A program made the translations under genes and the position numbers. Positions 100-54,555 of a stretch of DNA of 64,000 bases are shown here, piece by piece. The stretch lies in NCBI GenBank assembly GCA_964469525.1, contig CAYXYU010000001.1, forward strand, positions 266,144 to 330,143. Direction: 5' to 3'. The notes beneath the pieces are model-generated. The model ran no database searches, was not told where the DNA came from, and worked only from the letters and a program-made list of their open reading frames with translations. The DNA is from an uncultured Rickettsiales bacterium (GTDB lineage: Bacteria; Pseudomonadota; Alphaproteobacteria; Rickettsiales; SXRF01). The stretch's first letter is position 1, and every line of letters begins with the position of its first letter.

Positions 100-195
100 G
101 TCATCCTGAGCGAAGAGCGCAGGCCGTAGTCGAAGGATCTTTCTTTGCCACAAGGAAGTAAGATCCTTCGACTTGCTGCGCTTGCTCAGGATGAC
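100..195. repeat. Two-hairpin palindromic element of the GTCAT...ATGAC class, 96 bp
   Basis: The outer arms are GTCATCCTGAGCGAAGAGCGCAG (100-122) and CTGCGCTTGCTCAGGATGAC (176-195). The inner perfect stem is GTCGAAGGATCT (129-140) with AGATCCTTCGAC (161-172). The element overlaps the stop codon of the 186..968 gene. Confidence 0.8.
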
Positions 196-968
196 AAGTG
201 GAGCACCTCCTCCACTGCCTTGAGGATTACCTCCAACTGATGGGGCTCGGACAGGCGGTGGCCGCCGCCGCCCACCATTTCCAGTTCGATATCAGGAGAA
301 GTAATACACTCCATCAGCAGGTGCGACATGCGCCAGGGGACGTCCTTGTCGTCGGTGCCGTGCACCAGTCGCACCGGCACGGGGAATTCCATCCTGGTAT
401 CGAGCAGCAGGTGACTGCGCCCGTCCTCGATCAGCTGGCGTGTGATCGGGTACGGTTCGCTGCCGTAGCAATCGAGGATCAGCATACCCCCCTCTTCCAT
501 GAATTTCTGTTTCTCCTCATCGGAGAGCTTGTCCCAGATCAGCCGCTCGGTGAAATCGACGGCGCTGGCGATGCCGACCAGCCCCGCCACCTTTTCCGGC
601 CGCTCGCGGGCGACGAGGAACATCAGCCACGCGCCCATGCTGGAGCCGACCAGCACGACCGGCTCGTCGATGAAGCGGTCGAGCATGTTCAGCGTGTCGC
701 GCTTCCAGTAGCTGATTGTGCCCTGATGAAAAAGGCCGGTTGAGCGGCCATGGCCGGTATAGTCGAAGCGCAGGAAGCGCCGCTCCTGCTCCCTGCAAAA
801 ACTTTCCAGCGCCAGCGCCTTGCTGCCGGTCATGTCCGACTTGAAGCCGCCGAGGAACATCACACCCGGCGTCTTGCCTTCGGTCAGCACGTAGGCCAGC
901 CGGCGGCCGCTACCCATATCGAGGTAGGACGGTTCAGGGAGTTGGTTCTTGACGGAGGTGCTGTTCAT
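186..968 (-). CDS. Alpha/beta-fold hydrolase
   Basis: This is a 260-aa ORF with the nucleophile elbow GSSMG, HG after strand 3 (MFLGGFKSD) and a C-terminal GGGH. The last codons and the TGA stop lie inside the 100..195 repeat. Confidence 0.75.
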   Translation of the reverse strand: MNSTSVKNQLPEPSYLDMGSGRRLAYVLTEGKTPGVMFLGGFKSDMTGSKALALESFCREQERRFLRFDYTGHGRSTGLFHQGTISYWKRDTLNMLDRFIDEPVVLVGSSMGAWLMFLVARERPEKVAGLVGIASAVDFTERLIWDKLSDEEKQKFMEEGGMLILDCYGSEPYPITRQLIEDGRSHLLLDTRMEFPVPVRLVHGTDDKDVPWRMSHLLMECITSPDIELEMVGGGGHRLSEPHQLEVILKAVEEVLHLSS

Positions 969-1008
969 CTTTAGACCGTGTTAACGATTGTTATATATAA
1001 GGGAACGC

Positions 1009-2205
1009 ATGGAAACGCAAACAGCAACCCCGCATAAACCTCCGGTGATCTTGCAATTAGTGCCGGAACTGCGAGCCGGCGGTGTTGAGCGCGGCACGAT
1101 TGATATCGCCCGTGCCATCGTCAAAGCGGGTGGCGTCGCGCTGGTCGCTTCTGCCGGTGGGCCGCTGGCCAGCCAGCTGCACCACGCCAAGGCGATGCAT
1201 ATTACGCTTCCGCTCAACAGCAAAAATATCTTCACCCTGTGGCGCAACAGCCACCGCATTGCAAAACTGGTGCGGGAGCACAAGGTGGATATCATCCATG
1301 CCCGCTCGCGCGCACCGGCCTGGAGCGGATGGTGGGCGGCGAAGAAAACTGGCTGCCACTTTGTCACCACCTTTCACGGCACCTATGGGCTCAGCGGTCT
1401 GTTCAAGCGCCGCTACAACAGCATCATGACGCGCGGCGAGCGGGTCATCGCCGTGTCGAATTTTATCGCCGACCACATTCAGCAGAATTACACCATCCAT
1501 TCCGACCGACTGCGCGTCATCCACCGCGGTGTCGATCTCAAGCTGTTCAACCCGTTCGGCCATTCGCCGCAGCGCATGATCCAGCTGGCCAGGGAATGGC
1601 GACTGCCGGACGATCTTCCACTGGTGCTCTTTCCCGGCCGTATTACGCGCTGGAAGGGGCAGGATGTCTTCATCAAGGCGCTGGCACGCCTGCCTCACCG
1701 GCATTTCTTCGCCATTATTCTGGGCGATGCCAAAGGGCATGAATCTTATCGCAAGGAACTAGAGTCTCTGATCGTCAAGTCCAACCTGGGAGGACATGTA
1801 CGTATCGCCGAGCACACCAGTTATGTCATGGAGGCCTATATGCTGTCGCGGCTGGTAGTGGCGACGTCGATTGCTCCCGAGGCGTTTGGCCGCGTGGTGC
1901 TGGAGGCGCAGGCAATGGGTAAGCCGGTTATCGCCACTAACCATGGCGGCCCGTGCGAAACGGTGGTGCCGGAAGTGACCGGCTGGCTGGTGAAGCCGCG
2001 CGATGTGACAGAGCTGGCGGACGCCATCGGCAAAGCTCTGGCACTCGATGAGTCCACCATGCAGTGGATGGGTGAGGAAGCCTACGCCAGCGCCCAGCAT
2101 TTCTCCCTCGACATCATGTGTCGGCAGACGCTTGCTGTGTATGAAGAGGTGATGGGGATGGAGAGGAAATCCATCCCGGTCGACACTCAGGAAGAAGCGG
2201 CCTAG
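1009..2205 (+). CDS. Glycosyltransferase family 4 (GT1/GT-B fold)
   Basis: The ORF track starts at a TTG at 988, but the ATG at 1009 (METQ...) is preferred. The EX7E-type motif EAFGRVVLEAQAMGKPVIATNHGGPCETV is typical of group 1 glycosyltransferases. Confidence 0.75.
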   Translation: METQTATPHKPPVILQLVPELRAGGVERGTIDIARAIVKAGGVALVASAGGPLASQLHHAKAMHITLPLNSKNIFTLWRNSHRIAKLVREHKVDIIHARSRAPAWSGWWAAKKTGCHFVTTFHGTYGLSGLFKRRYNSIMTRGERVIAVSNFIADHIQQNYTIHSDRLRVIHRGVDLKLFNPFGHSPQRMIQLAREWRLPDDLPLVLFPGRITRWKGQDVFIKALARLPHRHFFAIILGDAKGHESYRKELESLIVKSNLGGHVRIAEHTSYVMEAYMLSRLVVATSIAPEAFGRVVLEAQAMGKPVIATNHGGPCETVVPEVTGWLVKPRDVTELADAIGKALALDESTMQWMGEEAYASAQHFSLDIMCRQTLAVYEEVMGMERKSIPVDTQEEAA

Positions 2206-3188
2206 TTCCTCCCCACCGCCTTACTCATCTCGAGCATGCGCTCCAGGGGCTTGCGGGCGCGGACCATCAAATCGGGGGGGAGTTCGATGGAAGGGGTTCG
2301 ATCGCGCATGCACGCGGCGATTTTTTCCATGGTATTGAGTTTCATAAACGGGCAGGTATTGCAGGAGACGCAGGCGCCGCTTCCCATCCCTGGCACGTCG
2401 TAGAAGATGCTGCCGGGGGAGCGTTTCTTCATCTCGTGGAAGATGCCGGGTTCGGTCAGCACGATGAATTCGCCGCCCGCATGCTCGGCGCTGAATCTGA
2501 TCAGTGAAGAAGTCGAGCCAATATGGGCTGCATGCTGCAAGAGATGCTCGGGGCATTCGGGATGGGCAATAACCTGCGCCTGCGGGTGGCGGACTTTCAG
2601 CTTGATCAGTTCCTGCTCGGAGAAGCGTTCATGCACGATGCAGGTACCGTTCCAGAGCAACATGTTGCGGCCGGTTTTCCTGTTGAGATAGGCGCCGAGG
2701 TATTTATCCGGCGCGAAGATGATTTTCTGATCTTTGGGCAGCTGATTGATGATTACCTCGGCGTTGCTCGATGTGACGATAATGTCGCTGAGCGCCTTGA
2801 TCTCCGCCGAACAGTTGATATAAGTGACCACCAGATGGTCGGGATGCTGGTCCTTGAATCTTTTAAAGGCGTCCGGCGGGCAGGAATCCTCAAGCGAGCA
2901 GCCGGCCTTGAGGTCGGGAATCAGCACCAGCTTGTCCGGATTTAATATCTTGGCCCCTTCCGCCATGAACTTCACTCCGCAGAAAACAATGACATCGGCA
3001 TCGGTGGCGCTGGCGCGGCGGGCAAGCTCCAGCGAATCGCCGACATAATCGGCAATGTCCTGGATGTCATCCTCCTGGTAATAATGCGCCAGGATGACGG
3101 CATTCATTTCCTTGCGCAGGCGGTGGATTTCCGACTCGGGGTCGGCAAATCTGGCCGCGGTAACGGATATGATTTCTGAAGGCTGCAT
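2202..3188 (-). CDS. nadA: Quinolinate synthase
   Basis: The 328-aa product carries ILAHYYQ, FCGVKFMAE, INCSAEIKA and HPECP motifs, plus a C-terminal CxxC-rich region. Confidence 0.9.
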   Translation of the reverse strand: MQPSEIISVTAARFADPESEIHRLRKEMNAVILAHYYQEDDIQDIADYVGDSLELARRASATDADVIVFCGVKFMAEGAKILNPDKLVLIPDLKAGCSLEDSCPPDAFKRFKDQHPDHLVVTYINCSAEIKALSDIIVTSSNAEVIINQLPKDQKIIFAPDKYLGAYLNRKTGRNMLLWNGTCIVHERFSEQELIKLKVRHPQAQVIAHPECPEHLLQHAAHIGSTSSLIRFSAEHAGGEFIVLTEPGIFHEMKKRSPGSIFYDVPGMGSGACVSCNTCPFMKLNTMEKIAACMRDRTPSIELPPDLMVRARKPLERMLEMSKAVGRN

Positions 3189-3236
3189 AAGATAAATATA
3201 GGGGTAAAGGTTAATTTATTAAAGGGCTTTCCTCTT

Positions 3237-3331
3237 GTCATCACCCCAATCGCGTTAGCGATTCTAGGATGGTCAAAATTATATAGAAGTTGGATTCCCC
3301 TAGAATTTGCTGTGCAAATTCGGGGAATGAT
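3237..3331. repeat. Two-module palindromic element of the GTCAT...ATGA class
   Basis: Module 1 is GTCATCACCCCAATCGCGTTAGCGATTCTAGGATGG. Module 2 is GGATTCCCCTAGAATTTGCTGTGCAAATTCGGGGAATGA. The same two modules recur at 8999, 31126 and, inverted, at 43843. The element ends 6 nt from the gpsA stop. Confidence 0.85.
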
Positions 3332-3337: not shown

Positions 3338-4345
3338 TCATATCCCCTCGCTTACGAAGGGCCTTTCCAGGAGGCTTTCCACCACCCGGTCAACGGGGGC
3401 GTTCTCGTAGAGGATGCGGTACACGGCGTCGCAGATCGGCATGTTGAGGTCGAATTTATGGGCCAGCTTGCTGACCGACTCGGCAGCTACCACCCCCTCG
3501 GTGGCTCCCCTTCCCCTTCCGGAAAGTATTTCCTCCTTGCTGCGCCCTTGCCCAATGGCAATGCCGAACGACATGTTGCGCGATTTGGTGCTACCGCAGG
3601 TCAGGATCAAATCCCCGAGCCCCGAAAGCCCCATCAGCGTTTCATACTGCCCCCCCTTGGCGATCGCCAGACGCGCCATCTCGGCGAAGCCGCGCGTCAC
3701 CAGTGCGGCGCGGGCGTTCTCCCCGAATCTTTTGCCGATGGCGATGCCGCAGGCGATGGCGATAACGTTCTTCACCGCACCGCCGATCTGGGCGCCGATG
3801 ATGTCGGTAGTCATGTAGGGGCGGAACAGGCGCCCGCCGAGAGCATAGATCAGCATATCCCACACGGCTTCCTCCTGGCAGGCGATGGTGGTGGCGGTAG
3901 GCAGGCCGCGCGCAGCTTCGTCGGCGAAATTCGGGCCTGAGATAATGGCAATAGGGTTATGCGGCAGGATCGACTGCGTCACTTCGCTCATCAGCATCAG
4001 GCTGCCGCGCTCAATGCCCTTGCTGGCGATCGCGATCGGCACATCGGTAGCGATCAGGTCAGAGATGGCGATGCAGACCGTGCGCAATACATGCGAAGGC
4101 GTGGCAATCACTACCAGATCGCTGCGGCAGACATCGTTGAAGCGATCGGTGACGATGAGGTCGGGATCGATGAAGACCGACGGTAAATAAATATCGTTGA
4201 CGCGGTGCTCGCGGATGGATTGGATGACATGATGGTTACGCGTACCGAGCAATACTTCACTGCCGGCGCGATTTGCAAGGATGGCGAGCCCTGTACCCCA
4301 AGCGCCGCCGCCGATAACGCCGACGCGATAACGGCCGCTTTCCAT
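3338..4345 (-). CDS. gpsA: NAD(P)H-dependent glycerol-3-phosphate dehydrogenase
   Basis: The product has a GVIGGGAWGT Rossmann motif and GpsA-like GLxGLGDLxLTC and NxPIxxAVY motifs. The start is taken at the ATG at 4345, which forms a TAATG overlap with the virB9 stop. The 353-aa track ORF extends further upstream. Confidence 0.88.
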   Translation of the reverse strand: MESGRYRVGVIGGGAWGTGLAILANRAGSEVLLGTRNHHVIQSIREHRVNDIYLPSVFIDPDLIVTDRFNDVCRSDLVVIATPSHVLRTVCIAISDLIATDVPIAIASKGIERGSLMLMSEVTQSILPHNPIAIISGPNFADEAARGLPTATTIACQEEAVWDMLIYALGGRLFRPYMTTDIIGAQIGGAVKNVIAIACGIAIGKRFGENARAALVTRGFAEMARLAIAKGGQYETLMGLSGLGDLILTCGSTKSRNMSFGIAIGQGRSKEEILSGRGRGATEGVVAAESVSKLAHKFDLNMPICDAVYRILYENAPVDRVVESLLERPFVSEGI

Positions 4346-5112
4346 TACTGGTTGGCGGCTAGCCGCTTGGGCGCCCGCATCGCTTCGTTGAAAACGCACA
4401 CGATGTCCTTGCCGTGCCGCAGGGTGAAGCGCTCGCCCACGCGCTCGATCACAATATAATCGCCCCGGGTACGGTAGTTGATCAGCGATTCTTCCCCAGT
4501 ATCAGACACGAGGAAGAAGGCCGGGATATCGGCATTCTTGTTCTTGAATTGGAAATAGGTGAACTGCCCGTCGTCGAAGATCTTGATCGGCGCAATCAGA
4601 TCGGTGCCGGAGATGGTGTAATTGAAGTTATAGCCTCCCGCGTCCCGGACCGGGTCGGGAATCGGCACGGAATCCAGATAATTGCTGACCGTCGCCATAT
4701 CCTGCCCGTCGGGATAGATAAAGCGCATAATGAAGATCATGTCAGGATCTTCGATGCTATTGGTCTCACGCCCGTGCAGCTCGAACAGGTAAGTATGGCG
4801 GTTGGTGATGATGGTCATGTTGGTGGTGGCATCCTGATCAACCGGCTTCAGGAAGAGCCGGTTGCCGGAAGGATTCAGCATCCAGGCGGTGGAGTCACCC
4901 ATGGAGATGGTTGCGATTTCCTCCCCCTGCCCGAACTCGATAGCCGACTGGAAGCGATAATGCCCGGTAAAGCGGTATACCTGATCGGGCTGGTACATGA
5001 CAATGCGCACGCGGTGATCAAGCTGAATAGGGCGTGGCTCGCGTGCGGCCTGCGCGACTGAGGGTAAGGCAAGTGCCACCAGTAACAGCATATATAGTGA
5101 TATGGTTCTCAT
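4345..5112 (-). CDS. virB9: Type IV secretion system protein VirB9 (CagX/TrbG family)
   Basis: The 255-aa product has the signal peptide MRTISLYMLLLVALALPSVAQA. The N-domain reads VYRFTGHYRFQSAIEFGQGEEIATISMGDSTAWML...LFLKP...TNMTIITNRHTYLFEL. The C-domain reads IFDDGQFTYFQF...PAFFLV...INYR... Confidence 0.82.
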   Translation of the reverse strand: MRTISLYMLLLVALALPSVAQAAREPRPIQLDHRVRIVMYQPDQVYRFTGHYRFQSAIEFGQGEEIATISMGDSTAWMLNPSGNRLFLKPVDQDATTNMTIITNRHTYLFELHGRETNSIEDPDMIFIMRFIYPDGQDMATVSNYLDSVPIPDPVRDAGGYNFNYTISGTDLIAPIKIFDDGQFTYFQFKNKNADIPAFFLVSDTGEESLINYRTRGDYIVIERVGERFTLRHGKDIVCVFNEAMRAPKRLAANQ

Positions 5113-5819
5113 TATCCTTCCTGCATCCGCTTGTTGCGGTATTGGGTGACGATGAAGTTAATGGGCTTCACCTTGTCCGTTTCCTCATCCAAAGTAACGC
5201 CATTATATTCAAAATCAATCGTTGCCTGCCACATTGTGGTTTTAATGCCTGTTGGCCCTTCCACGATTGCCTCATAGGTAACTTCCATGGCATTCTGCTC
5301 CGGCAACCGCTTCGAGGATACGACCCTGATACTGCGGCGCGAGTGGCGCTGATAAAGCGCGATGGGGCTGTCGGGACTGCGCGGGTCGATGGCCTGCTGG
5401 AATTCGCGGAACACGCCTTCCGTGCTCTGGCTCCTGATGCCGCTGATGTTGCGGTCGAACGATTCGATATCGTAGCTTTCGCGGAAGGTGACATAGTTGT
5501 TCACCAGAAAGCGCAGCATCGCTGCGCTCGGGTCTTCGCCCTTGTACGCCAGCATACTGATTCGCGGCAGGTCGTCGACGATATTGTTGCTGTTGACAAT
5601 GAATGGAACGGCGCTACTCAACGGGTATAACCCTCGCGCGGCGATAACGGCAACGAACAGAATCATGCCTGCGATGGCGGTGATGGCGATGTACAGATAG
5701 CGCTCGGCCATGGGGTCGTGCACGGCCAGGTCATACATGCTGCGCGCTTCGCGGAAATACTCACCGGTACGAACTTTTTCAGCGATTTCAAGATATTCTT
5801 CCGGCGGTTTTTGTTCCAT
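5112..5819 (-). CDS. virB8: Type IV secretion system protein VirB8
   Basis: There is a single TM segment (YLYIAITAIAGMILFVAVIAA) followed by a VirB8-like periplasmic domain (FLVNNYVTFRESYD). The stop overlaps the virB9 start as TAATG at 5110-5114. The start is uncertain, either the ATG at 5819 (MEQKPP) or at 5906. Confidence 0.75.
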   Translation of the reverse strand: MEQKPPEEYLEIAEKVRTGEYFREARSMYDLAVHDPMAERYLYIAITAIAGMILFVAVIAARGLYPLSSAVPFIVNSNNIVDDLPRISMLAYKGEDPSAAMLRFLVNNYVTFRESYDIESFDRNISGIRSQSTEGVFREFQQAIDPRSPDSPIALYQRHSRRSIRVVSSKRLPEQNAMEVTYEAIVEGPTGIKTTMWQATIDFEYNGVTLDEETDKVKPINFIVTQYRNKRMQEG

Positions 5820-5929
5820 AGCGCGACTATACAATAAAAGCCTGAAAAACACTACGTTTTTGTTGTTGACGGGGGGCATGGCGAACGGTTTAATCAGTCC
5901 CGTCATGCGAAATTTGTAAGCATTATCCC

Positions 5930-8998: not shown

Positions 8999-9084
8999 GT
9001 CATCATCCGAATCGCTTTGGCGATTCTATGGCGATCCAGGAACTGGATTCCCCTAGGATTTGCCGTGCAAATCGGGGGAATAAC
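8999..9084. repeat. Two-module palindromic element, same family as 3237..3331
   Basis: The sequence is GTCATCATCCGAATCGCTTTGGCGATTCTATGG followed by GGATTCCCCTAGGATTTGCCGTGCAAATCGGGGGAATAAC. It starts 10 nt after the ccmG stop and runs into the 5' end of ccmH. Confidence 0.85.
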
Positions 9085-11000: not shown

Positions 11001-11067
11001 GTCATCCTCGGGCTTGCCCCGGGGGTCCATTTTTAAAAGAATGGATTCCCGCCTTCGCGGGAATGAC
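11001..11067. repeat. Short two-hairpin palindromic element of the GTCAT...ATGAC class
   Basis: The sequence is GTCATCCTCGGGCTTGCCCCGGGGGTCCAT, a 12-nt spacer, then GGATTCCCGCCTTCGCGGGAATGAC. The terminal GGGAATGAC supplies the ATG at 11063. Confidence 0.85.
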
Positions 11068-12439
11068 AAAGAAAGCATATGAAATGACTGTCAAAAAATG
11101 GACCCCCGAAACCTGGCGCAAGCTGCCGATCAAGCAGCAGCCGGAATATAAAAATGCCCAGCAGTTAAAGGCGGTTGAGGGGCAGCTGGCGATGATGCCG
11201 GTGCTGGCGTCGCCCGATGAGGCGCGGGCGTTGAAGCGCGAGCTGGCGCAGGCGGCGGTGGGCAAGGCGTTCCTGCTGCAGGGTGGCGATTGCGCGGAGA
11301 GTTTTGCCGAGTTTTCCGAGGATAACCTGCGCCGGTTTTTCCGGGTATTGCTGCAGATGACCATGGCGCTGATGTATGGCGCGGGGGTGCCGGTGGTGAA
11401 GGTCGGGCGCATCGCCGGGCAGTTCGCCAAGCCGCGCTCGGAAGGTACGGAGAAAAAAGAAGGTAAGGAGCTACCGGCCTATCGCGGCGACATGGTCAAT
11501 GCCATGGAGTTCGACGAAAATGGGCGCATACCCGATCCCGAGCGGCTGCTTCGCGCCTATTACCAAGGCGCGGCGACCATCAATTACCTGCGCACGCTGG
11601 CGCGTGGCGGCTATGCGTCGCTCAACCGCATCAACCGCTGGAACATGGAGTTCGCACAGAGTTCGGCGCAGGGCAAGCGCTTCTCCGACCTGGTGGCGCG
11701 CATCAATGAGTGCATCGGCTTTATTTCGGCTTGCGGCCTGCCGATCGACGAGGTCGAGCAGTTCTCTGAGGCCAGCTTCTTCACCTCGCACGAGGCGCTG
11801 CTGCTCAATTATGAGGCGGCGCTGACCCGATTCAGCAAGACGGATGAGAAATATTACGCCGGATCGGCGCATATGCTGTGGATCGGTGACCGCACGCGCT
11901 CGCCCGACGAGGCGCATGTCGAGTTTATGCGCGGCATTGCCAATCCGATTGCGATGAAGTGCGGCCCTTCGATGACGACGGACGGCCTGCTCAAACTGAT
12001 CGACATCCTGAACCCCGAGAACGAACCGGGGCGCCTCACCCTGATTTCGCGCATGGGCGCGACCAAGGTCGGCGAGCTGTTGCCGCCGCTGGTACGTGCG
12101 GTGCAGAAGGAAGGCCGGAGCGTCGTCTGGTCGTGCGATCCGATGCACGGCAACACCATCAAGTCGCCCAACGGCTATAAGACGCGCAAATTCACCGACA
12201 TCCTGACCGAGGTGCGCCAGTTCTTCGCCGTGCACAAGGCGGAAGGCACGGTGGCAGGCGGCATGCATTTTGAGATGACCGGGCAGGACGTGACCGAATG
12301 TTTAGGCGGCGCGCAGGCGATTTCGGAGATGAATCTTTCGGACCGGTATCACACCCACTGCGACCCACGTCTTAACGCTTCGCAATCACTGGAGCTGGCG
12401 TTTTTGATTGCCGAGACGCTGAAGAAGCAGAAATCCTAA
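11063..12439 (+). CDS. 3-deoxy-7-phosphoheptulonate (DAHP) synthase, class II
   Basis: The 458-aa product has class II hallmarks: [35 protein letters not shown] and CDPMHGNT. The start is either the ATG at 11063 (inside the repeat terminus) or at 11084. Confidence 0.88.
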
Positions 12440-12441
12440 CC

Positions 12442-12574
12442 GTCATTCCGGCCAGAATTTAATTTTTGGCCGGAATCCAGTGTGCCGCGTCTGCGGCACG
12501 AATATTCCATACCGCGCCCACGGCGCTTGACTGGATTCCCCTATAATTTTGCTACGCAAAATTCGGGGAATGAC
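12442..12574. repeat. 133-bp two-hairpin composite element, paralog of 16050..16172
   Basis: The left hairpin is GTCATTCCGGCCAGAATTTAATTTTTGGCCGGAATCCAG. A shared central segment (TGTGCCGCGTCTGCGGCACGAATA...GGCGCTTGACTGG) follows. The right hairpin is ATTCCCCTATAATTTTGCTACGCAAAATTCGGGGAATGAC. The element starts 2 nt after the DAHP synthase stop. Confidence 0.88.
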
Positions 12575-15984: not shown

Positions 15985-16049
15985 GGCTCGCTCTTTTTTT
16001 GCTGTAATGTCAAAGCATAACGGCCGGATGTTGTAAACGGGAAGTTATC

Positions 16050-16172
16050 ATCATTCCCGGAAAGCAGGAATCCAGTAGTGCTGCGTCTACGGCACGAATA
16101 GGTTCTATACCACCCATGGCGCTTGGACTGGATCCCCCTATAATTTTGCTTGCGCAAAATTCGGGGAATGAC
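16050..16172. repeat. 123-bp two-hairpin composite element, paralog of 12442..12574
   Basis: The sequence is ATCATTCCCGGAAAGCAGGAATCCAG, then TAGTGCTGCGTCTACGGCACGAATAGG...GGCGCTTGGACTGG, then ATCCCCCTATAATTTTGCTTGCGCAAAATTCGGGGAATGAC. It ends 3 nt from the pyrF stop. Confidence 0.88.
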
Positions 16173-31125: not shown

Positions 31126-31208
31126 GTCATCACCCGAATCACGTCAGCGATTCTACGGTAACCCAGCTAGATTCCCTTAAGATTCGCTGCGCGAATCCGG
31201 GGAATGAC
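31126..31208. repeat. Two-module palindromic element, same family as 3237 and 8999
   Basis: The sequence is GTCATCACCCGAATCACGTCAGCGATTCTACGG followed by AGATTCCCTTAAGATTCGCTGCGCGAATCCGGGGAATGAC. It encodes the last 13 residues and the stop of the 31167..32834 gene. Confidence 0.85.
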
Positions 31209-32834
31209 TAATATAATCCATCCCAGCAGCGCAACGGTGCTCACTCCATAAGCAATCCAAATCAGCAAAGGGTTTCCATGAGTGGCGGCGTAATACAGAG
31301 TAACGCGATGTTCACCTGCAGGAATGTCCAGCAGCATCTGCCCTGTCTGCTCCTGCGGATAAAGTGCCAGCGGTAACTCGCCAGTGTGCGCTTCCCACGC
31401 CGGAAAATGATAATGGTCAATGTGCACCGTCAGATTTTCTTTCGACTTCGTATCAAATACGATGGCGTTTTGGTCGAATTGTTGCAGGGCCAGTTCACCA
31501 GTGCCTTCCGCGATGCGCACGCGCTCCGGCATTTGGTCTTGCCGCTGGAGCATATGCCTAATGGTGAAGTCCTGCTGCGCGATCCACCGCGTGCGGTATT
31601 CGGGCTGCGTTGCGATATTCGCTCCCAGTACCCATTGCCTCCGCTCCTTTGATTCCTCTGCGCGTACTCCGACGACCAGGTACGATAAAAGCACCATCAG
31701 TCCGAGCAGCAGAATAAAATCGGCCTTCCAGGTTTTTAATTTCTTTTCACCTGCGAAGTGCTGCATCCATACTGCTGCCAGGAAGGTCAGCGTAACCATG
31801 AATATGGCTTGCATCCGCCAGGGAAAGAAAACCTGCTGCAGTGGGCCGAGCAATTCATACAACGGCTTGCTGACCGGGAAAAGCAGCAGCATGGCAACCA
31901 GCGATGCCCCGATCCATGCGATGACTTCGCGGCGCACGAAGATGTCACGAATGTGCTGCCGTTTTGCCAGCATGTAGATGGAAAACACCAGCAGTGCGAG
32001 CAGCGTGATGGCGATGGCGAGCACGATGCGCCCCTGCGCCAGCTCGGTAAGGTTATAATGCGAGAGGAATGTGTTCGGCCAGCCTCGCGGTCCGGCCACC
32101 AGATCAGGCGGCGCCATGAACTGCCGATAGTAGATGGCTGGCACGAGGTAAAAGGCGGCCAACGCAGCTCCCCATATCAGTGCTGCGTCGTAGCGCCATT
32201 TCGACAGCCACCCTCCCCACGCCACAATAAGGAGATAGGTTCCGCTGGCCACGATGGCTACTACTGCACCAGGCATATGGGTGAGAAACGTCAGGCCGAA
32301 GGTAACGGATAGCGGTAACAGCGCACGATGATTGTCGAGAGCGATCCGGCGGGTATATTTCAGCACCAGCGGCAGCGGCGCCAGGAGCCATATCTCCGCA
32401 TGTGCGGTGCGGAACAGCATGGCTTCCATGCGGTAGGGCATGAAGATGAAGAGCAGCGCGGCCAGCAGCGCCCGCCCAGGGGTGACAATATCCTTCAGCC
32501 AGCTGTAGCAGGCGAGGCCGGTAACGAAGGTGGCCAGTCCCATGCTGATGCCGTACAGACCGTAGAGCGAGATGCCCAGATGCGTCAGCGGATACAGCAA
32601 TGAAGCGATGTAATATGGCAGGGGAAAGTAAAAGAAGAATACTGGCGAACCCAGCCCGGCATTGGCTTTCATGCACCAGCGCGGGTACAGGTCGCCCTGC
32701 CAGAACTGGCCGGCGAAGCAGTCGATCAGCATCATATGCAGATCGATGTCACCGCCGAGGTCGAACAGGGCGATGGGAAGAATGTTGAGGAGAGAGGCGA
32801 GGAAGAGGATGGAGAGAAGGACTTTATGTAACAT
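31167..32834 (-). CDS. Large polytopic membrane protein, possibly a GT-C-like glycosyltransferase
   Basis: The 555-aa product has about 12 N-terminal TM helices, a GDLYPRW motif and a C-terminal soluble domain plus a final TM. The function is not firmly recognised. The C-terminal VIPRIRAANLKGI and the TAG stop are repeat-encoded. Confidence 0.5.
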   Translation of the reverse strand: MLHKVLLSILFLASLLNILPIALFDLGGDIDLHMMLIDCFAGQFWQGDLYPRWCMKANAGLGSPVFFFYFPLPYYIASLLYPLTHLGISLYGLYGISMGLATFVTGLACYSWLKDIVTPGRALLAALLFIFMPYRMEAMLFRTAHAEIWLLAPLPLVLKYTRRIALDNHRALLPLSVTFGLTFLTHMPGAVVAIVASGTYLLIVAWGGWLSKWRYDAALIWGAALAAFYLVPAIYYRQFMAPPDLVAGPRGWPNTFLSHYNLTELAQGRIVLAIAITLLALLVFSIYMLAKRQHIRDIFVRREVIAWIGASLVAMLLLFPVSKPLYELLGPLQQVFFPWRMQAIFMVTLTFLAAVWMQHFAGEKKLKTWKADFILLLGLMVLLSYLVVGVRAEESKERRQWVLGANIATQPEYRTRWIAQQDFTIRHMLQRQDQMPERVRIAEGTGELALQQFDQNAIVFDTKSKENLTVHIDHYHFPAWEAHTGELPLALYPQEQTGQMLLDIPAGEHRVTLYYAATHGNPLLIWIAYGVSTVALLGWIILVIPRIRAANLKGI

Positions 32835-32857: not shown

Positions 32858-32929
32858 GTCACTCCTGCGTAAGCAGGAGTTTTGCTGATTGCCTTAAATA
32901 AGCAAGCCCCCTGCTTTCGCAGGGGTGAC
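32858..32929. repeat. 72-bp two-hairpin palindromic element of the GTCAC...GTGAC variant
   Basis: The sequence is GTCACTCCTGCGTAAGCAGGAGT, then the spacer with palindrome TTGCTGATTGCCTTAAATAAGCAA, then GCCCCCTGCTTTCGCAGGGGTGAC. It ends 4 nt from the metC stop. Confidence 0.8.
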
Positions 32930-34701: not shown

Positions 34702-37700
34702 ATGGCTAAACACTATTACCCTGAGGTCGATCCCAACCCCGATTTCTCTGTCATTGAAAAGGCAGTGCTGGCCTACTGGAAAAAGGAAAAACTATTTGAA
34801 AAATCAGTGGATGCCCGTCCTGCTTGCAAGAATAGCGAGCTCAATGAGTTCATTTTTTACGATGGTCCGCCCTTTGCCAACGGCCTGCCGCATTACGGCC
34901 ACCTGCTCACCGGCTATGTAAAGGATTTATTCGCCCGCTACCAGACCATGAAGGGCAAGCGCGTCGAGCGCCGCTTCGGCTGGGACTGCCACGGCCTGCC
35001 GGCGGAAATGGGTAGCGAAAAAGAGCTGGGCATTTCCGGTCGCGCCGCCATCACCAATTTCGGCATCGGCAAATTCAACGAGCATTGCCGTACCTCGGTG
35101 ATGAAATACACGCAGGAATGGGAAGAATACGTGACGCGCCAGGCGCGCTGGGTGGATTTCAAGAACGACTACAAAACCATGGACATCAACTTCATGGAGT
35201 CCGTGCTGTGGGCGTTCAAGCAGCTTTATGATAAAGGCCTGGTGTTTGAAGCCTATCGCGTGATGCCCTATTCCTGGGCCGCCGAAACGCCGCTTTCGAA
35301 TTTTGAAACCAAGCTCGATAATTCGTACCGCGAACGCGAGGACAAAGCCATCACCGTGGCGTTTGAACTCAACACGCCGCCGCACGGTGCACCGAAAGCC
35401 GATAAATATTATGTGCTGGCATGGACGACCACGCCATGGACACTTCCGAGTAACCTGGCCTTGGCGGTGAATGCAGAAAATGAGTATGTGTGCATTCGTC
35501 ATTCCCGCGAAAGCGGGAATCCAGTTTGTTATATTATAGGTGCTAACGCTGTAGCTAGATATGCAAAAGAATTTGGTGATGCCGAAGGAAAAGTAAGTGT
35601 GGATTCCCGCTTTCGCGGGAATGACGTGGTAGGATTAAGCTACCACCCCCTCTTCCCGTACTTTGCCTCGCATAAGCATTCGTTCAAGATTCTGGATGGC
35701 TCGTCGTTCGTTAGCGATGCCGACGGTACCGGCATCGTGCATATGGCGCCGGGGTTCGGTGAGGACGACCAGAAGGTGTGCGAGGCGAACGGTATCGAAA
35801 TCGTCGTGCCGGTCGATGGGCAGGGCAAATTCACCGACAAGATATACGATATTCCCTATCCTCGTCATTCCCGCGAAGGCGGGAATCCATACTCTGAGAC
35901 GGTGGTTATGGACCCCCGCCTGCGCGGGGGTGACGAAGTATTGAGTCTCAAAGGCCTCAACGTCATCGCCGAGCCGGGCGGCAGCAAGTTCGGTTTGGCC
36001 AATGACAGAATCATTGATTACCTCAAGGCCACCGGCCAGCTTATCAAGCAGGAGCAGATCAAGCACAACTACCCGCATTGCTGGCGCACCGACACGCCGC
36101 TGATTTACCGCGCCATGCCGAGCTGGTATGTCGAGGTGACTAAATTCCGCGACCGTGCGGTGGAGATGAACAAGCAGATCAACTGGATTCCCGCGCACAT
36201 CCGCGACGGGCAGATGGGGCATATGCTGGCCACCGCGCCTGACTGGTCGATTTCGCGTAACCGCTTCTGGGGCACGCCGATACCGGTGTGGCGCTCCAAA
36301 TCCGGTAAGATAAAAGTGTTCGGCAGCATCGCCGAAATCGAAAAAGCCAGCGGCCAGAAAGTCAAAGACCTGCACCGCCCGTATATCGACGAGATCGTCA
36401 TCCACGAGGGCGGTGAGGAATACCGCCGCGTCGAGGACGTGTTCGATTGCTGGTTCGAATCGGGCAGCATGCCGTTCGCGCAGGTGCATTATCCGTTCGA
36501 GAACAAGGACTGGTTCGAGGCGCATTTCCCGGCCGATTTCATCACCGAATATGTCGGCCAGACGCGCGGCTGGTTCAATACGCTCATCATGCTGTCGACG
36601 GCGCTATTCGACAAGCCACCCTTTCAGAATTGCGTGTGCCACGGCGTGGTGCTCGATTCGGAAACCGGCCTGAAATATTCCAAGCGCCTGAAGAATTACA
36701 AGGACCCGATGGAAGTGATGGACAAGTTCGGGGCCGACGCGCTGCGCTGGCTGATGATTTCCTCGCCCGTGATGCGCGGCATGGACCTCTCGGTTGATCC
36801 TGAAGGCAAATTTATCCGCGACGTGGTGCGCCTGGCCATCAAGCCGATCTGGAACGCGTATAATTTCTTCTGCTTGTACGCGAATGCGGATGGCATCAAG
36901 GCGAAATTCTTAATTGATTCAGAGAATGGAATGGATCGGCATATTTTAGCCAAGTGTAAGCAAACAGTGGAAAGCATTGAACAATCGCTTGATGTGTACG
37001 ATACGCCCAGTGCTTGTGATGCCGTATCTGTCTTTTTCGAGGTGCTTAACAACTGGTACATTCGTCGCAGTAAAACACGTTTCTGGGCTGAAGAAAAAAC
37101 CCAAAGCAAGCAAGAAGCTTATGACACGCTGTATACAGTACTTGTAATAATTTGTCGCGCAGCTGCCCCTCTTTTGCCCATGACATTAGAAGAAATCCAC
37201 CGTGGCCTTACTGGTGAAGAGAGTGTTCATTTGATGGATTTCCCAGATGTAAAAAGTCTCAATGTGGATGAAAACCTGGCAAGAGAAATGGATTTCGCAA
37301 GAGACATTTGCAATGCTGCACTTGCAGTACGCAATGCTGCTAATATTCGTGTGAGGCAACCGCTTGGTAAAATGACCTTGGTTGGTAATCGGCAGTTTCC
37401 ACTTGGTTTGGGAGCAATAATAGCAGATGAAATAAACATAAAGAATTTTTCTAATTCAAAAGATCTTAAACAATACGCCACTCTCAAACTCTCCATCAAC
37501 AACCCCGTCCTCGGCAAGCGCCTTCCTGCCCTGATGAAGCAGATTATTCCTGCTTCCAAGAAGGGTGAGTGGAAACAGGTGGACGGCACGGTGGAAATTT
37601 GCGGTGAGAAGCTGCTGCCTGGTGAATTCACGTTGCAACTCGAACCCAAGCCCGAATACAAGGACCGGGCGCAGGCACTCTCTACCAACGATGCGCTGGT

Positions 37701-37995
37701 GATCCTCGATACCACCATCACGCCCGAGCTTGAGGCCGAGGGCATCGCGCGCGACCTGGTGCGCATGGTCCAGCAGGCGCGCAAGGATGCGGCGCTGGAT
37801 GTATCGGACAGGATCCGGCTGCACATCGGCGCGCCGGAGCCGATCGCCAAAGCGGTGGCGGCGCATAAATCATATGTCATGGAGCAGACGCTGTCGGTCG
37901 AGCTTTCCGAGAAAAAACCGGAGCCGGCCATCTTCTCTACCGAGAACACGCTCGACGACCAGAAGGTGATTATTTCCTTTGCCATTGCGGCCTAA
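34702..37995 (+). CDS. ileS: Isoleucine--tRNA ligase, type 2 (eukaryote-like), carrying two in-frame repeat insertions
   Basis: The 1097-aa product has the HYGH (HIGH-class) motif in PPFANGLPHYGHLLTGY, a KMSKS-class motif (KYSKRLKN), and IleRS editing and anticodon-binding regions. It stays open through the repeats at 35498..35625 and 35864..35934. Confidence 0.92.
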   Translation: MAKHYYPEVDPNPDFSVIEKAVLAYWKKEKLFEKSVDARPACKNSELNEFIFYDGPPFANGLPHYGHLLTGYVKDLFARYQTMKGKRVERRFGWDCHGLPAEMGSEKELGISGRAAITNFGIGKFNEHCRTSVMKYTQEWEEYVTRQARWVDFKNDYKTMDINFMESVLWAFKQLYDKGLVFEAYRVMPYSWAAETPLSNFETKLDNSYREREDKAITVAFELNTPPHGAPKADKYYVLAWTTTPWTLPSNLALAVNAENEYVCIRHSRESGNPVCYIIGANAVARYAKEFGDAEGKVSVDSRFRGNDVVGLSYHPLFPYFASHKHSFKILDGSSFVSDADGTGIVHMAPGFGEDDQKVCEANGIEIVVPVDGQGKFTDKIYDIPYPRHSREGGNPYSETVVMDPRLRGGDEVLSLKGLNVIAEPGGSKFGLANDRIIDYLKATGQLIKQEQIKHNYPHCWRTDTPLIYRAMPSWYVEVTKFRDRAVEMNKQINWIPAHIRDGQMGHMLATAPDWSISRNRFWGTPIPVWRSKSGKIKVFGSIAEIEKASGQKVKDLHRPYIDEIVIHEGGEEYRRVEDVFDCWFESGSMPFAQVHYPFENKDWFEAHFPADFITEYVGQTRGWFNTLIMLSTALFDKPPFQNCVCHGVVLDSETGLKYSKRLKNYKDPMEVMDKFGADALRWLMISSPVMRGMDLSVDPEGKFIRDVVRLAIKPIWNAYNFFCLYANADGIKAKFLIDSENGMDRHILAKCKQTVESIEQSLDVYDTPSACDAVSVFFEVLNNWYIRRSKTRFWAEEKTQSKQEAYDTLYTVLVIICRAAAPLLPMTLEEIHRGLTGEESVHLMDFPDVKSLNVDENLAREMDFARDICNAALAVRNAANIRVRQPLGKMTLVGNRQFPLGLGAIIADEINIKNFSNSKDLKQYATLKLSINNPVLGKRLPALMKQIIPASKKGEWKQVDGTVEICGEKLLPGEFTLQLEPKPEYKDRAQALSTNDALVILDTTITPELEAEGIARDLVRMVQQARKDAALDVSDRIRLHIGAPEPIAKAVAAHKSYVMEQTLSVELSEKKPEPAIFSTENTLDDQKVIISFAIAA
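35498..35625 (+). repeat. 128-bp two-hairpin element inserted in frame in ileS
   Basis: GTCATTCCCGCGAAAGCGGGAATCCAG is followed by a 74-nt spacer of 36% GC and then GGATTCCCGCTTTCGCGGGAATGAC. It is translated as RHSRESGNPVCYIIGANAVARYAKEFGDAEGKVSVDSRFRGND (43 codons, 35497-35625). Confidence 0.85.
35864..35934 (+). repeat. 71-bp two-hairpin element inserted in frame in ileS
   Basis: GTCATTCCCGCGAAGGCGGGAATCCAT is followed by a spacer and then GACCCCCGCCTGCGCGGGGGTGAC. It is translated as [24 protein letters not shown] (24 codons, 35863-35934). Orientation and reading frame match the first insertion. Confidence 0.88.
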
Positions 37996-42114: not shown

Positions 42115-43836
42115 ATGACCAAAACCTATGGAAAGTCACGGCTTCCCAGCCGTCATGTGACGGAGGGGCCGGAGCGCGCGCCGCACCGGTCGTATCTCTA
42201 TGCCATGGGGATTCCGGAAAAGGGCATCCATGCGCCGCTGGTCGGGGTGGCGACCACCTGGAATGAGGCAGCGCCTTGCAATATTACTTTGGGGCGGCAG
42301 GCGCAGGTGGTGAAAAAAGGCGTCGCCGCTGCCGGAGGCACGCCGCGCGAATTTACCACCATCACCGTTACCGACGGCATCGCCATGGGGCATCAGGGCA
42401 TGAAATCGTCGCTGGTTTCGCGTGAAGTCATCGCTGACTCGGTGGAACTGACCATGCGCGGGCATTGCTACGATGCGCTGGTCGGGCTGGCCGGGTGCGA
42501 TAAATCCCTGCCGGGGCTGATGATGGCGATGGTGCGGCTCAACGTGCCGAGCGTCTTCATGTATGGCGGCTCGATTCTGCCGGGCAAATTTCAGGGTAAG
42601 CAGGTCACGGTGGTCGATGTCTTTGAAGGCGTCGGCAAGCACAGCGCCGGGGTGATGAACGACGAAGAGTTGCATGCGCTGGAGCAGGTGGCCTGTCCGT
42701 CGGCTGGAAGCTGCGGCGGCCAGTTCACGGCCAATACCATGGCCTGCGTATCGGAAGCAATCGGCCTCGCACTGCCCGGCTCGGCGGGCGCGCCGGCGCC
42801 GTACGAATCGCGCGATGCGTTCGCCTTCGAATCCGGCGAAGCGGTGATGATGCTGCTTAAGAATAAAATCCGCCCGCGCGATATCGTGACGAAAAAAGCG
42901 CTGGAGAATGCCGCCGCCGTTGTCGCTGCCACCGGTGGCTCGACCAACGGAGCGTTACATCTGCCCGCTATCGCGCATGAGGCGGGCATCGATTTTGATA
43001 TTCATGCGGTAGGTGAAATCTTCAAGCGCACGCCCTATCTGGCCGATCTCATGCCCGGCGGTAAATACACCGCCAAGGATCTCTATGAGGCTGGTGGCGT
43101 GCAGGCGGTGATGAGGACGCTGCTCGACGGCGGCTACCTGCACGGTGATTGCCTAACGGTCACCAGTAAGACCATTAAGGAGAATCTGAAAGATGTGAAG
43201 CTGAATCCGGAACAGGATGTAATTTACCCACACAATAAACCGCTTCGGCCGGAAGGTGGTGTGGTCGTACTTAAAGGCAACCTTGCACCTGAAGGCGCCA
43301 TCGTCAAAGTGGCGGGCATGAAGAACCTGGTGTTCAAGGGCCCAGCGCGCTGCTTCGATTCTGAAGAAGCCTGTTTTGAAGCGGTCGACAAGAAGAACTA
43401 CAAAGAAGGCGAGGTGCTGGTGATTCGTTATGAAGGCCCGAAGGGGGGGCCTGGCATGCGTGAGATGCTGGCCACCACCGCCGCGCTCTACGGTCAGGGG
43501 ATGGGTGACAAAGTGGCATTGATCACCGACGGGCGTTTCTCTGGCGGCACACGCGGCTTCTGCATCGGCCATGTCGGGCCCGAGGCGGCGATAGGCGGCC
43601 CGATCGGGCTATTGAAAGACGGTGATCTCATCATCATCGATGCTACCAAACAGCTTATCCATGTCGAACTCAGCGACGCCGAGCTTGAAAAGCGCCGCGC
43701 TGTCTGGAAATCCCGCCAAACCGATTACCAGTCGGGAGCGCTGTGGAAATACGCCCAGGCCGTTGGCTCCGCTGAAAAAGGCGCTGTCACCCACCCGGGG
43801 GCAAAGGCCGAAACGCACGTGTTTGCGGATATTTAG
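42115..43836 (+). CDS. ilvD: Dihydroxy-acid dehydratase
   Basis: The 573-aa product has the CDKSLPG, SGGTRG and ITDGRFSGG motifs. Confidence 0.92.
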
Positions 43837-43842
43837 TCATCC

Positions 43843-43964
43843 GTCATTCCCCGGATTTGCGCAGCAAATCCTAGGGGAATCCAGTCCTTATATTCAAACT
43901 GGATAACCCTAGAATCGCTATGCGATTCGGATGATGACGCATTTCCTGCTTTCACAGGAATGAT
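43843..43964. repeat. Two-module palindromic element in inverted orientation, plus an extra small hairpin
   Basis: The sequence is GTCATTCCCCGGATTTGCGCAGCAAATCCTAGGGGAATCCAG ... GGATAACCCTAGAATCGCTATGCGATTCGGATGATGAC (to 43938), then ATTTCCTGCTTTCACAGGAATGA. It fills the gap between the ilvD stop (6 nt away) and the hemerythrin gene stop (2 nt away). Confidence 0.85.
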
Positions 43965-43966
43965 AG

Positions 43967-53316: not shown

Positions 53317-53320
53317 TATC

Positions 53321-53393
53321 GTCATTCCCGCGAAGGCGGGAATCCATGCTTCTCCATTTGCGTGGCATGGATACCGGCCTGCGCCGGGATGAC
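53321..53393. repeat. 73-bp two-hairpin element of the GTCAT...ATGAC class
   Basis: GTCATTCCCGCGAAGGCGGGAATCCAT is followed by a spacer and then GGATACCGGCCTGCGCCGGGATGAC. It starts 4 nt after the ispDF stop. Confidence 0.85.
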
Positions 53394-53414
53394 AGGAAGA
53401 TTAGTGAGGAATAA

Positions 53415-53993
53415 ATGGAACAAAACGGAATAAAAGATACCCCCCCACCCTTTCCTCTCCATCAAGGGGAGAGGGTAAATAAGTGGTGGTGGTACATCGC
53501 CACCTGGTTCGGTTGCGGGCTATCGCCGAAGGTGCCGGGGACGGTGGGCTCGCTCGGCGCGCTGCCGGTCGGGTATGTCATCCATGTGACGCTCGGCGGC
53601 TTTGGATTGCTTGCCGCTTCGGTGCTGATGTTCCTGCTCGGCTGGTGGGCGTCGAACGAATACCTGAAACGCTATGGCGGCGACGACCCCGGGCAAATTG
53701 TGGCGGATGAGGTGGCGGGCCAGTGGCTGGTGCTGTCGGTGCTGTTTCCGACCTGGCAGTCGTATCTCGTGGCGTTTCTGTTGTTCCGTCTGTTCGATAT
53801 CGTGAAGCCATGGCCAGTATCGCTCGCTGATGAAAAAATCAAAGGCGGTCTCGGCGTAATGTTCGATGACATGCTGGCGGGGTTGTATCCGGTGCTGATC
53901 TACCTATGTATCCTGCTTGAGGCGCAGCTTTTCGGTTCGCAGGAAATACTGCTGCCGGTGATGAATTTCCTGGGTGGAAGTTATGTTCAGTAA
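53415..53993 (+). CDS. pgpA: Phosphatidylglycerophosphatase A
   Basis: The product has the FGCGLSPKVPGTVGSLGALP and FRLFDIVKPWP motifs. The N-terminal 25 aa include a hairpin-encoded PPPFPLHQGERV segment (53447-53476). Confidence 0.82.
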   Translation: MEQNGIKDTPPPFPLHQGERVNKWWWYIATWFGCGLSPKVPGTVGSLGALPVGYVIHVTLGGFGLLAASVLMFLLGWWASNEYLKRYGGDDPGQIVADEVAGQWLVLSVLFPTWQSYLVAFLLFRLFDIVKPWPVSLADEKIKGGLGVMFDDMLAGLYPVLIYLCILLEAQLFGSQEILLPVMNFLGGSYVQ

Positions 53994-54471
53994 AGCGCTG
54001 GTGAAAGAAGCTTCCGAACTGCTGGCGGCCTATGCCGACAAGGGCTTCAGGCTGGCCATCGCCGAGTCCTGCACGGGCGGGCTGATCGGCGTGCTGCTGA
54101 CGGAAGTGCCGGGTGCGTCCGACGTGATGGATCGCGGTTTCATCACCTATTCCAATGAGGCGAAAACCGAGGTGCTGGGCGTCGACAAGGCGCTGATTGC
54201 AAAACATGGCGCGGTGAGCAAAGAAGTGGCCGAGGCGATGGCAAAGGGTGCGCGCGGCAAGGCAAAAACCGACATTGGCCTGTCGGTGACCGGCATCGCC
54301 GGGCCGGGTGGCGGCAGTAAGGAAAAGCCGGTGGGATTGGTCTATATCGCGGTGGCGACCGATAAGGAAACGGTGGTGGAGAAAAACCTCTTCCAGGGCG
54401 ACCGCAACGCTGTCCGCATGGCGAGCGTCGCCAAGGCGGTGGAGATGTTAAAAGACGTAATTGCTAAATAA
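53980..54471 (+). CDS. CinA C-terminal domain / nicotinamide-nucleotide amidase (PncC-like)
   Basis: The product has the LAIAESCTGGLIG and GLSVTGIAGPGGGS motifs. Confidence 0.82.
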   Translation, partial: VMFSKALVKEASELLAAYADKGFRLAIAESCTGGLIGVLLTEVPGASDVMDRGFITYSNEAKTEVLGVDKALIAKHGAVSKEVAEAMAKGARGKAKTDIGLSVTGIAGPGGGSKEKPVGLVYIAVATDKETVVEKNLFQGDRNAVRMASVAKAVEMLKDVIAK

Positions 54472-54473
54472 CT

Positions 54474-54555
54474 GTCATCCCGGCGAAGGCCGGGATCCAT
54501 GCCCATACCCATTCGCAAGCGGAAAAGCATGGATTCCCGCCTACATGGGAATGAC
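54474..54555. repeat. 82-bp two-hairpin element of the GTCAT...ATGAC class
   Basis: GTCATCCCGGCGAAGGCCGGGATCCAT is followed by a spacer and then GGATTCCCGCCTACATGGGAATGAC. It lies 2 nt after the cinA-like stop and 4 nt from the glmU stop. Confidence 0.85.

Follow-up and report, generated by a model that had tools for sequence, protein, structure and literature searches.

The window analysed here, a 64-kb stretch of contig CAYXYU010000001.1 from an uncultured alphaproteobacterium with a genome of 57% G+C, carries 14 short elements built of inverted, tagged hairpins, with a combined length of 1,355 bp. We consider it likely that these elements are copies of the repeats described as CGTC-1 tagged repetitive extragenic palindromes (REPs), as NTS or as Ssn-related motifs (SRM), and that they serve as recognition hairpins for Ssn-type nucleases. 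What we report is a repeat family already known, as is its partner, and seen here in a new lineage. The evidence comes from the anatomy of the hairpin units, from the conservation of those bases on which a characterised Ssn nuclease depends, and from the neighbourhood of units and ssn-like genes in relatives and metagenomes.

The elements are built of CGTC-1/NTS hairpin units

All 14 elements listed in a preliminary description of this sequence proved real and lie where they had been placed. They comprise 29 hairpin units, arranged as inverted pairs with GTCAY...RTGAC outer ends and with the tags facing outward in every element (14/14); the element at 43843-43964 contains three units instead of two. 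The number of degenerate outer ends given in that description had to be raised from three to four, 43964 (ATGAT) being the addition. A pyrimidine precedes GTC at 27 of the 28 outer ends, so the tag is more fully written as YGTC. When folded as single-stranded DNA (ssDNA), 11 of the 14 elements were more stable than all 200 shuffled versions (z from -2.0 to -10.8), and the core ATTCCC-N8-GGGAAT occurred eight times against 0.02 expected. A scan of the window against Rfam returned a tRNA-Ser only, and no Rfam family covers the elements.

For the unit alignment we used 24 short units, 15 from the window and nine from three related genomes, which yielded the consensus CGTCATTCCCGCGAAGGCGGGAATCCA. 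The shared termini, whose loss on alignment of more copies would have counted against the preliminary description, persisted: the tag positions T3 and C4 do not vary at all, and G2 and C25, the C that follows the stem, are conserved at 90% or above. What we call the A-type unit consists of an unpaired C/TGTC tag, an 8-bp stem beginning AT, a 4-nt loop and a CCA tail. Under this stem-loop model 96.5% of cells were paired and 14 double-sided changes were found, located at three of the eight stem pairs (C-G to G-C, U-A or A-U), and none of 500 shuffles reached the observed covariation. A covariance model built from the units retrieved 16 A-type units in the window (E < 1e-4), all of them within the 14 elements, and the census of A-type units can accordingly be regarded as complete. 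Besides A we distinguish the types B, B' (the partner of B in mixed pairs) and C, the last represented by one pair at 100-195. No target-site duplication was found at any of the 28 outer ends. The flank upstream of the tag shows a preference for YY only, and a stop-codon-like insertion target, which had been considered as a candidate, was rejected on that ground.

The CGTC-tagged REPs surveyed by Di Nocera et al. (2013, PMC3733652) have an unpaired CGTC or TGTC tag, stems of 8-9 bp beginning AT, loops of 4-5 nt and a CCA tail, and they occur mostly as tag-outside pairs in mainly alphaproteobacterial hosts, Micavibrio included. The same survey equated CGTC-1 with dRS3 of Neisseria and RPE-6 of R. 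conorii, and Chenal et al. (2025, PMC11893778) later widened dRS3 into NTS, an oriented motif of 28 nt. Every CGTC-1 feature is found in the 16 A-type units of the window, which have the same tag, stem, loop and tail, and the likeness extends to outward-tagged pairs with spacers of 13-78 bp, an alphaproteobacterial host, 3'-end positions and in-frame copies. The B, B' and C units, in contrast, have bipartite or longer stems and fall outside the four published CGTC families with their stems of 8-9 bp and loops of 4-5 nt. Seven window units match the Neisseria NTS motif CGTCATTCCCGCGMAVGCGGGAATCYRG over all 28 nt with 0-2 mismatches, the non-palindromic flanks included, where none was expected; the left unit in ileS (35497-35524) is an exact match, and the core of the 24-unit consensus is identical to that of NTS. 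The preliminary description had noticed the resemblance to dRS3 and assumed convergence. Because seven units fit the oriented NTS motif, and because dRS3 itself has been placed in the CGTC-1 family, we read the resemblance as family membership instead.

Units bracket Ssn-like nuclease genes in relatives

SsnA, a single-domain GIY-YIG nuclease of roughly 95 aa, binds the NTS hairpin only as ssDNA and cuts a few nt 5' of the tag; it is inactive on double-stranded DNA, on RNA and on the complementary strand, depends for cleavage on the three bases preceding the palindrome and for binding on the C that follows it, and reduces transformation of N. meningitidis by NTS-bearing DNA (PMC11893778). The arrangement NTS-ssnA-NTS resembles an insertion sequence, for which the authors suggested domestication (PMC11893778). 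In the window units, the most conserved bases are the very bases that SsnA uses, namely the GTC tag for cleavage and the C after the stem for binding. Window units and NTS/SRM thus share the 28-nt motif with its oriented flanks, the hairpin and a conservation peak on tag and post-stem C.

In relatives and metagenomes, such units also have the neighbour published for NTS/SRM. Five of the seven open reading frames (ORFs) that are bracketed by outward-tagged units in the loci of relatives encode small GIY-YIG proteins of about 95-105 aa, and five flanked ORFs (four of these bracketed GIY-YIG genes and one in locus L205) match Pfam PF01541 with E = 1e-12 to 1e-17. Using tblastn, we found 12 Ssn-like genes in about 2 Mb of loci selected by the repeat; every one of them has a unit no more than about 25 nt away on one side or on both, the latter in about eight cases. 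Because these first loci had been selected by the repeat, we drew a second sample by protein alone, which comprised 80 metagenome loci with 67 testable genes. A GTC-tagged hairpin was present within 130 nt of 41 of the 67 genes (61%), and on both sides with tags outward in 21 (31%), whereas only 2 of 85 control windows shifted by 900 nt contained a unit; the published counterparts are 71% and 42% (PMC11893778). The link to the GIY-YIG nuclease is a replication of Chenal et al. 2025, found again independently. When subgroups of the Ssn proteins were compared with the A- or B-type of the flanking units, the best-hit pattern was mixed.

The preliminary description had proposed a search for a REP-associated tyrosine transposase (RAYT) as partner. 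The gene beside the repeats is a small GIY-YIG nuclease instead, and tblastn with E. coli RayT, one distant query applied to partial genomes, gave no RAYT-like match in the window or in any of the other loci that carry units (2.36 Mb; 120 viral-collection loci, 111 genome loci and 85 further loci). Two weak matches were inspected and are not Y1 transposases. The remark in the preliminary description that no transposase had been seen in the window was borne out by this search and by a Pfam scan of 50 window ORFs, which returned housekeeping families or no match and among which there is no transposase, integrase or nuclease.

Elements are concentrated at gene 3' ends

On a map of ORFs annotated with Pfam, 11 of the 14 elements overlap a stop codon or sit at most 12 nt from one. 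In two cases, a hydrolase gene and an ORF of 555 aa, the coding sequence runs on into the element and the stop lies inside it. Genes are packed very densely in this genome: many overlap, and many gaps measure less than 20 nt. We scored 11 of the 12 intergenic elements (100-195 was excluded, its left neighbour lying beyond the window) against uniform placement in element-free intergenic space, which puts 11-16% of positions within 12 nt of a stop. Ten of the 11 elements were that close (P = 4e-9 to 1e-7), and in gaps between same-direction genes they lay nearer the upstream stop than expected by chance (Fisher P = 0.016). The ORF at 23388-24401 (+) was reassigned to tsaD after this test, and the result was not materially affected.

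A bias to gene 3' ends was also detected in relatives, where 35% of 106 outward-tagged pairs lie at most 15 nt, and 51% at most 30 nt, from the stop of a long ORF, compared with 11.5% and 20.5% of random non-coding positions in the same loci (P about 1e-10). The positional bias reported in the preliminary description is therefore real and general but weaker in relatives than in the window, and its wording that the elements sit almost exclusively at stop codons does not carry over to the relatives. Such a bias was already published for this repeat family: CGTC REPs between convergent genes have either 3' end at a distance of under 20 bp, those between same-direction genes lie near the upstream stop, and further copies are found in frame within genes, tRNA synthetase genes among these (PMC3733652).

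A terminator scan of the first 20 kb flagged one of six elements, 11001-11067, and the unit tails read CCA followed by mixed sequence. We therefore rejected the intrinsic terminator as an identity for the elements. A conventional structure of that kind is present in the convergent gap between argG and amtB (29650-29697), where an ordinary G+C-rich hairpin stands between A and T runs (AAAAGGGCGACC...GGCCGCCCTTT), one of few terminator-like 3'-end structures in the window.

Two sites lie in frame in the IleRS editing domain

The ORF at 34702-37995 encodes isoleucyl-tRNA synthetase (IleRS; Pfam) and contains both 35498-35625 and 35864-35934 in frame, and these two sites are accordingly not intergenic. 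According to solved IleRS structures, both fall in the CP1 editing domain. At the first site, the A-type units 35497-35523 (+) and 35600-35626 (-) encode RHSRESGNP and DSRFRGND around 78 nt of native editing-domain coding DNA. Alignment with 39 homologues revealed that this apparent spacer is native IleRS sequence, which is also present in hairpin-free homologues, so that 35498-35625 represents two single units and not one element. The two-hairpin element, taken as basic in the preliminary description, thus gives way to the single unit. The second site, 35864-35934, is a pair of an A and an A-variant unit and encodes 24 residues. The unit-terminal GGG AAT GAC (G-N-D) aligns with a native G-S-D of yeast IleRS.

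Three related genomes have the pair at site 1, and both of its arms carry the stem variant CCCGGCG in one of these. At site 2, the window and one relative hold units whose stems are compensated differently, and two other relatives have an empty site (CCT GAC CTC); across the clade, the IleRS loop at site 2 bears many different peptides derived from GTCAY...RTGAC units.

Relatives also have other insertions in IleRS. Many relatives (P0025, P0030, P0032, P0038, P0039, P0044 and others) have a whole DUF559/MTES_1575 endonuclease-like domain at site 2, flanked by ...SPLEGEG.../...PSPSRGEGA... peptides, which suggest another palindromic repeat. A GNAT acetyltransferase domain lies within the IleRS of other relatives, and IleRS length in the clade ranges from 978 to 1,528 aa.

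A two-stem B-type unit and turnover of occupied sites

The B type has the form GTCATTCCCCGRATTTGC-N3-GCAAATYCTAGGGGAATCCA. B and B' units measure 38-45 nt and fold into two stems of 7 bp each, separated by a 1x3 internal loop. In 115 B-type copies from the loci of relatives, the R of GRATTT pairs with its partner without exception (82 A-T, 31 G-C, 0 exceptions), and the distal inner stem is free to vary in sequence yet stays paired, while the outer stem and the tag are conserved. When species-representative genomes were searched for the B-type unit, at least 111 loci were returned; the hosts among the listed matches are one isolate of the Bacteroidota and metagenome-assembled genomes (MAGs) that bear the labels Micavibrio, Rickettsiales, Rhodospirillales and Azospirillum. 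In Marinoscillum furvescens DSM 4134, a cultured member of the Bacteroidota, a B-type unit and an Ssn-like gene lie amid several units (L166, 4779-5203), so the B type is not limited to the alphaproteobacterial clade; this copy hints at horizontal spread.

The closest IleRS in a collection of 5.8 billion proteins is 76% identical to that of the window, and the named relatives are MAGs labelled Rickettsiales or Alphaproteobacteria. No same-species genome was present among the fetched loci, for which the best nucleotide identity was 66-79%. Comparison of orthologous 3' ends with these loci showed that occupancy is not fixed. The cinA/glmU gap holds an A/A pair in the window and a B/B pair in L146, and in both genomes the pair leaves only 2-8 nt to either stop; L149 has a B/B' pair, 27 nt past the argG stop, where the window has its ordinary hairpin; and the ilvD 3' end has three units in the window, a single A unit in L003 and none in L004. 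Such differences are not what would be expected of a gene-specific regulatory element and fit mobile or renewable repeats.

In short-read assemblies of this organism, which come from four sequencing runs (L001, L238-L242), contig breaks fall exactly at hairpin elements; one contig, for example, runs from 35862 to just beyond the ilvD stop. The repeats and their neighbours are thus likely to be under-represented in genome bins of the lineage.

Individual elements and their surroundings

The C-type pair at 100-195 consists of units 100-138 (+) and 163-195 (-) with outward tags, and the whole can fold as one long hairpin (z = -9.7); the hydrolase gene 186-968 (-) receives its TGA stop from it (CCTGAGC). 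Mixed B'/B pairs are found at 3237-3331, 6 nt past the gpsA stop and 48 nt ahead of the nadA start, with a degenerate right tag (ATCAT); at 8999-9084, 10 nt past the ccmG stop and upstream of ccmH, likewise with a degenerate right tag (GTTAT); and at 31126-31208, where the 555-aa ORF 31167-32834 (-) runs 42 nt into the B unit and ends in ...VIPRIRAANLKGI before the stop. Between gpsA and the ccm genes lie a VirB9/CagX and a VirB8 gene (4345-5906, -), with no other type IV secretion gene of the window nearby. Scattered type IV secretion genes are known in Rickettsiales.

The element 11001-11067 is an outward-tagged pair of a variant unit, 11001-11029 (+), and an A-type unit, 11042-11068 (-), in the divergent promoter gap between pheA and the DAHP synthase gene. 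Two nt past the stop of the DAHP synthase gene follows 12442-12574, in which a long-loop A-like unit, 12441-12479 (+), is combined with a B unit, 12535-12574 (-) (z = -7.8); its structured spacer is homologous to that of 16050-16172, a degenerate A unit, 16049-16074 (+), with an ATCAT tag and a B unit (-), located 3 nt past the pyrF stop. The element 25148-25271, 11 nt past the hflX stop, is a matched A/A pair with perfect 28-nt arms and a 74-nt spacer (z = -10.8), and its other end carries an in-frame ATG of a solute-binding-protein ORF.

The terminal ATGAC of an element supplies an in-frame ATG at the head of the downstream ORF at 11063 (DAHP synthase, MTKK..., the first possible start of that ORF) and at 25152 (solute-binding protein, MTIIL...), and at 9079-9084 the corresponding ATG, heading ccmH ((I)TIVLVL...), is mutated to ATA at 9081. 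Donation of start codons to these three genes is unproven, downstream starts being equally plausible.

Four nt past the metC stop, 32858-32929 is a pair of A-type variants whose stems, TCCTGCG and CCCTGCG, differ by compensated changes. The three-unit element 43843-43964 (B, 43843-43883 (+); B', about 43899-43938 (-); degenerate A, 43939-43965 (-)) fills the gap between the convergent genes ilvD and hemerythrin, whose stops are 6 nt and 2 nt away. Within 43833-43849, a GTCATCC remnant overlaps the ilvD stop (TAGTCATCC) immediately ahead of the intact GTCATTCC tag, and the third unit, 43939-43965, adjoins the tag at the opposite end; the remnant and the abutting unit suggest repeated insertion at or next to existing tags. 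The pair at 53321-53393, an A unit with an A variant (CCCGGCG stem), lies 4 nt past the ispDF stop and 21 nt ahead of pgpA, and the A-variant/A pair at 54474-54555 fills the convergent cinA/glmU gap, 2 nt from the cinA stop and 4 nt from that of glmU.

After the tRNA-Ser gene (60521-60612), G+C content falls from about 60% to 47-52% over about 2.5 kb (60500-63000), a region with long non-coding gaps (559 and 490 nt), poorly assigned ORFs (a weak N-terminal asparagine amidohydrolase match, a PepSY protein) and no hairpin unit. It may be a small island inserted at tRNA-Ser.

Discussion

Considering the anatomy of the units and the company they keep in relatives, we propose that each unit is an oriented recognition hairpin for one or more Ssn-type nucleases, which would be encoded elsewhere in the genome, outside the window; the A-type and the longer B-type units would probably have separate Ssn nucleases. 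The repeats may be spread or renewed by way of that nuclease, either as a selfish or as a domesticated SRM-ssn-SRM element with gene-less derivatives, and they would survive mainly where they do no harm, a few nt after stop codons and in surface loops such as that of the IleRS editing domain.

Several points weigh against this proposal. No Ssn-like GIY-YIG gene was found by tblastn in the 64-kb window, and the cognate nuclease of this organism is one that we infer. What has been demonstrated for SsnA is cleavage of DNA and modulation of transformation, not transposition, and a role in spreading repeats is a hypothesis in PMC11893778 as well. Moreover, the spacing of 2-11 nt from the stop is tighter in the window than in relatives and is explained only loosely by tolerance alone, and Bertels and Rainey have tied the same Neisseria repeat to a Group 2 RAYT.

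Comparison with related systems places the repeats more closely. In Neisseria, NTS form large clusters around surface-protein genes, whereas the window has tight outward-tagged pairs at stops, in an uncultured alphaproteobacterium and without an ssn gene in the window; 2 of 14 sites are intragenic here, as opposed to 2% of the copies in N. meningitidis. Rickettsia palindromic elements (RPE) are likewise palindromic repeats that lie in frame in protein genes which stay intact, and RPE-6 and RPE-4 have been classed as CGTC REPs (PMC3733652). The window also has scattered VirB8/VirB9 genes, and many related MAGs are labelled Rickettsiales; on the other hand, the G+C content is 57%, the relatives are labelled Micavibrio/Rhodospirillales as often as Rickettsiales among the matches listed, and most copies are intergenic.

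Placement after stop codons raises the question of whether the hairpins act in RNA, as 3'-end, stability or terminator structures or by stalling terminating ribosomes, an effect exerted by REPs of E. coli at most 15 nt from a stop. We regard this as an unlikely primary role. The 11 elements within 12 nt of a stop, the enrichment in relatives and the strong predicted folds agree with it, as does the frequent lack of room for ordinary terminators between convergent genes, and E. coli REPs less than 16 nt from a stop are reported to reduce translation of the upstream gene. However, conservation in the units falls on oriented, unpaired features, namely the GTC tag and the C that follows the stem, which an RNA-only hairpin would not need; among the six elements of the first 20 kb no T-run follows the hairpins except at 11001-11067; the mixed pairs have no fixed orientation relative to the upstream gene; copies occur in frame in ileS and in a divergent promoter gap; and gene 3' ends that carry units in one genome lack them at the orthologous site of another. 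An effect at the RNA level may nevertheless accompany the DNA-level function as a secondary consequence, with which it is compatible.

We are also sceptical that the elements are REPINs, non-autonomous pairs copied in trans by a single-copy RAYT elsewhere in the genome, as has been proposed in Neisseria. The architecture would fit, since two inverted REPs can fold into one long hairpin, and the elements resemble REPIN-RAYT systems and the REP/BIME of E. coli in being inverted REP pairs that follow genes and are highly repeated. Bertels and Rainey connected a Group 2 RAYT with the master sequence ATTCCCGCGCAGGCGGGAATC of Neisseria, and frameshifts in the RAYT with the decay of that sequence. 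Yet RAYT-associated REPs carry a GTAG tag, whereas the tag here is YGTC; Di Nocera et al. reported no tyrosine transposase gene flanked by CGTC units (PMC3733652); and the neighbouring gene encodes a GIY-YIG nuclease, not a Y1 (HUH) transposase: 12 repeat-selected and 41 of 67 protein-selected Ssn-like genes adjoin a unit, while the RayT search was negative in the window and the 2.36 Mb, although divergent RAYTs may escape a single distant query and partial genomes may easily fail to show a gene present in one copy. Finally, terminal inverted repeats of about 26-30 nt, sizes of 67-133 bp and the known use of REPs as insertion-sequence targets (PMC3733652) might recall miniature inverted-repeat transposable elements of a DDE-type insertion sequence, or attachment sites of an IS110-type or filamentous-phage recombinase, as said of dRS3 in Neisseria, but this is very improbable given that no copy has a target-site duplication, the upstream flank shows a YY preference only, single units insert alone, each arm is itself a hairpin with compensated changes, the 50 window ORFs scanned include no transposase or integrase, and a target role would be a secondary use that would not explain the repeats.

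Returning to oriented Ssn recognition hairpins, three sites differ between genomes in the type of unit that they hold: ileS site 1, where three genomes have TCCCGCG and a fourth has CCCGGCG in both arms; the cinA/glmU gap; and the loop in the IleRS editing domain. As a tentative idea, which we think more likely to fail than to hold, occupied sites might swap unit type in both arms at once through Ssn-induced gene conversion or homing, so that Ssn would renew CGTC repeats and the B unit would represent a new specificity class of Ssn.

Published work already covers the repeat family, its location behind genes, the in-frame copies and the nuclease partner, and the main addition made here is a new host lineage, a compact uncultured alphaproteobacterium with relatives labelled Micavibrio, Rickettsiales or Rhodospirillales. 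Modestly new are the two-stem B-type unit, the hot spot in the IleRS editing domain and the exchange of unit types at occupied sites. The two published partners of the same repeat, RAYT and SsnA, stand unreconciled, and the neighbourhood evidence collected here favours the GIY-YIG nuclease. As a candidate substrate, the B-type unit points to Ssn nucleases of new specificity, which are of biotechnological interest as ssDNA cutters, and the IleRS hot spot offers many independent natural insertions for studying how repeats insert and are replaced. If Ssn does bring about the exchange of unit types, it would be the long-sought enzyme that renews CGTC repeats.

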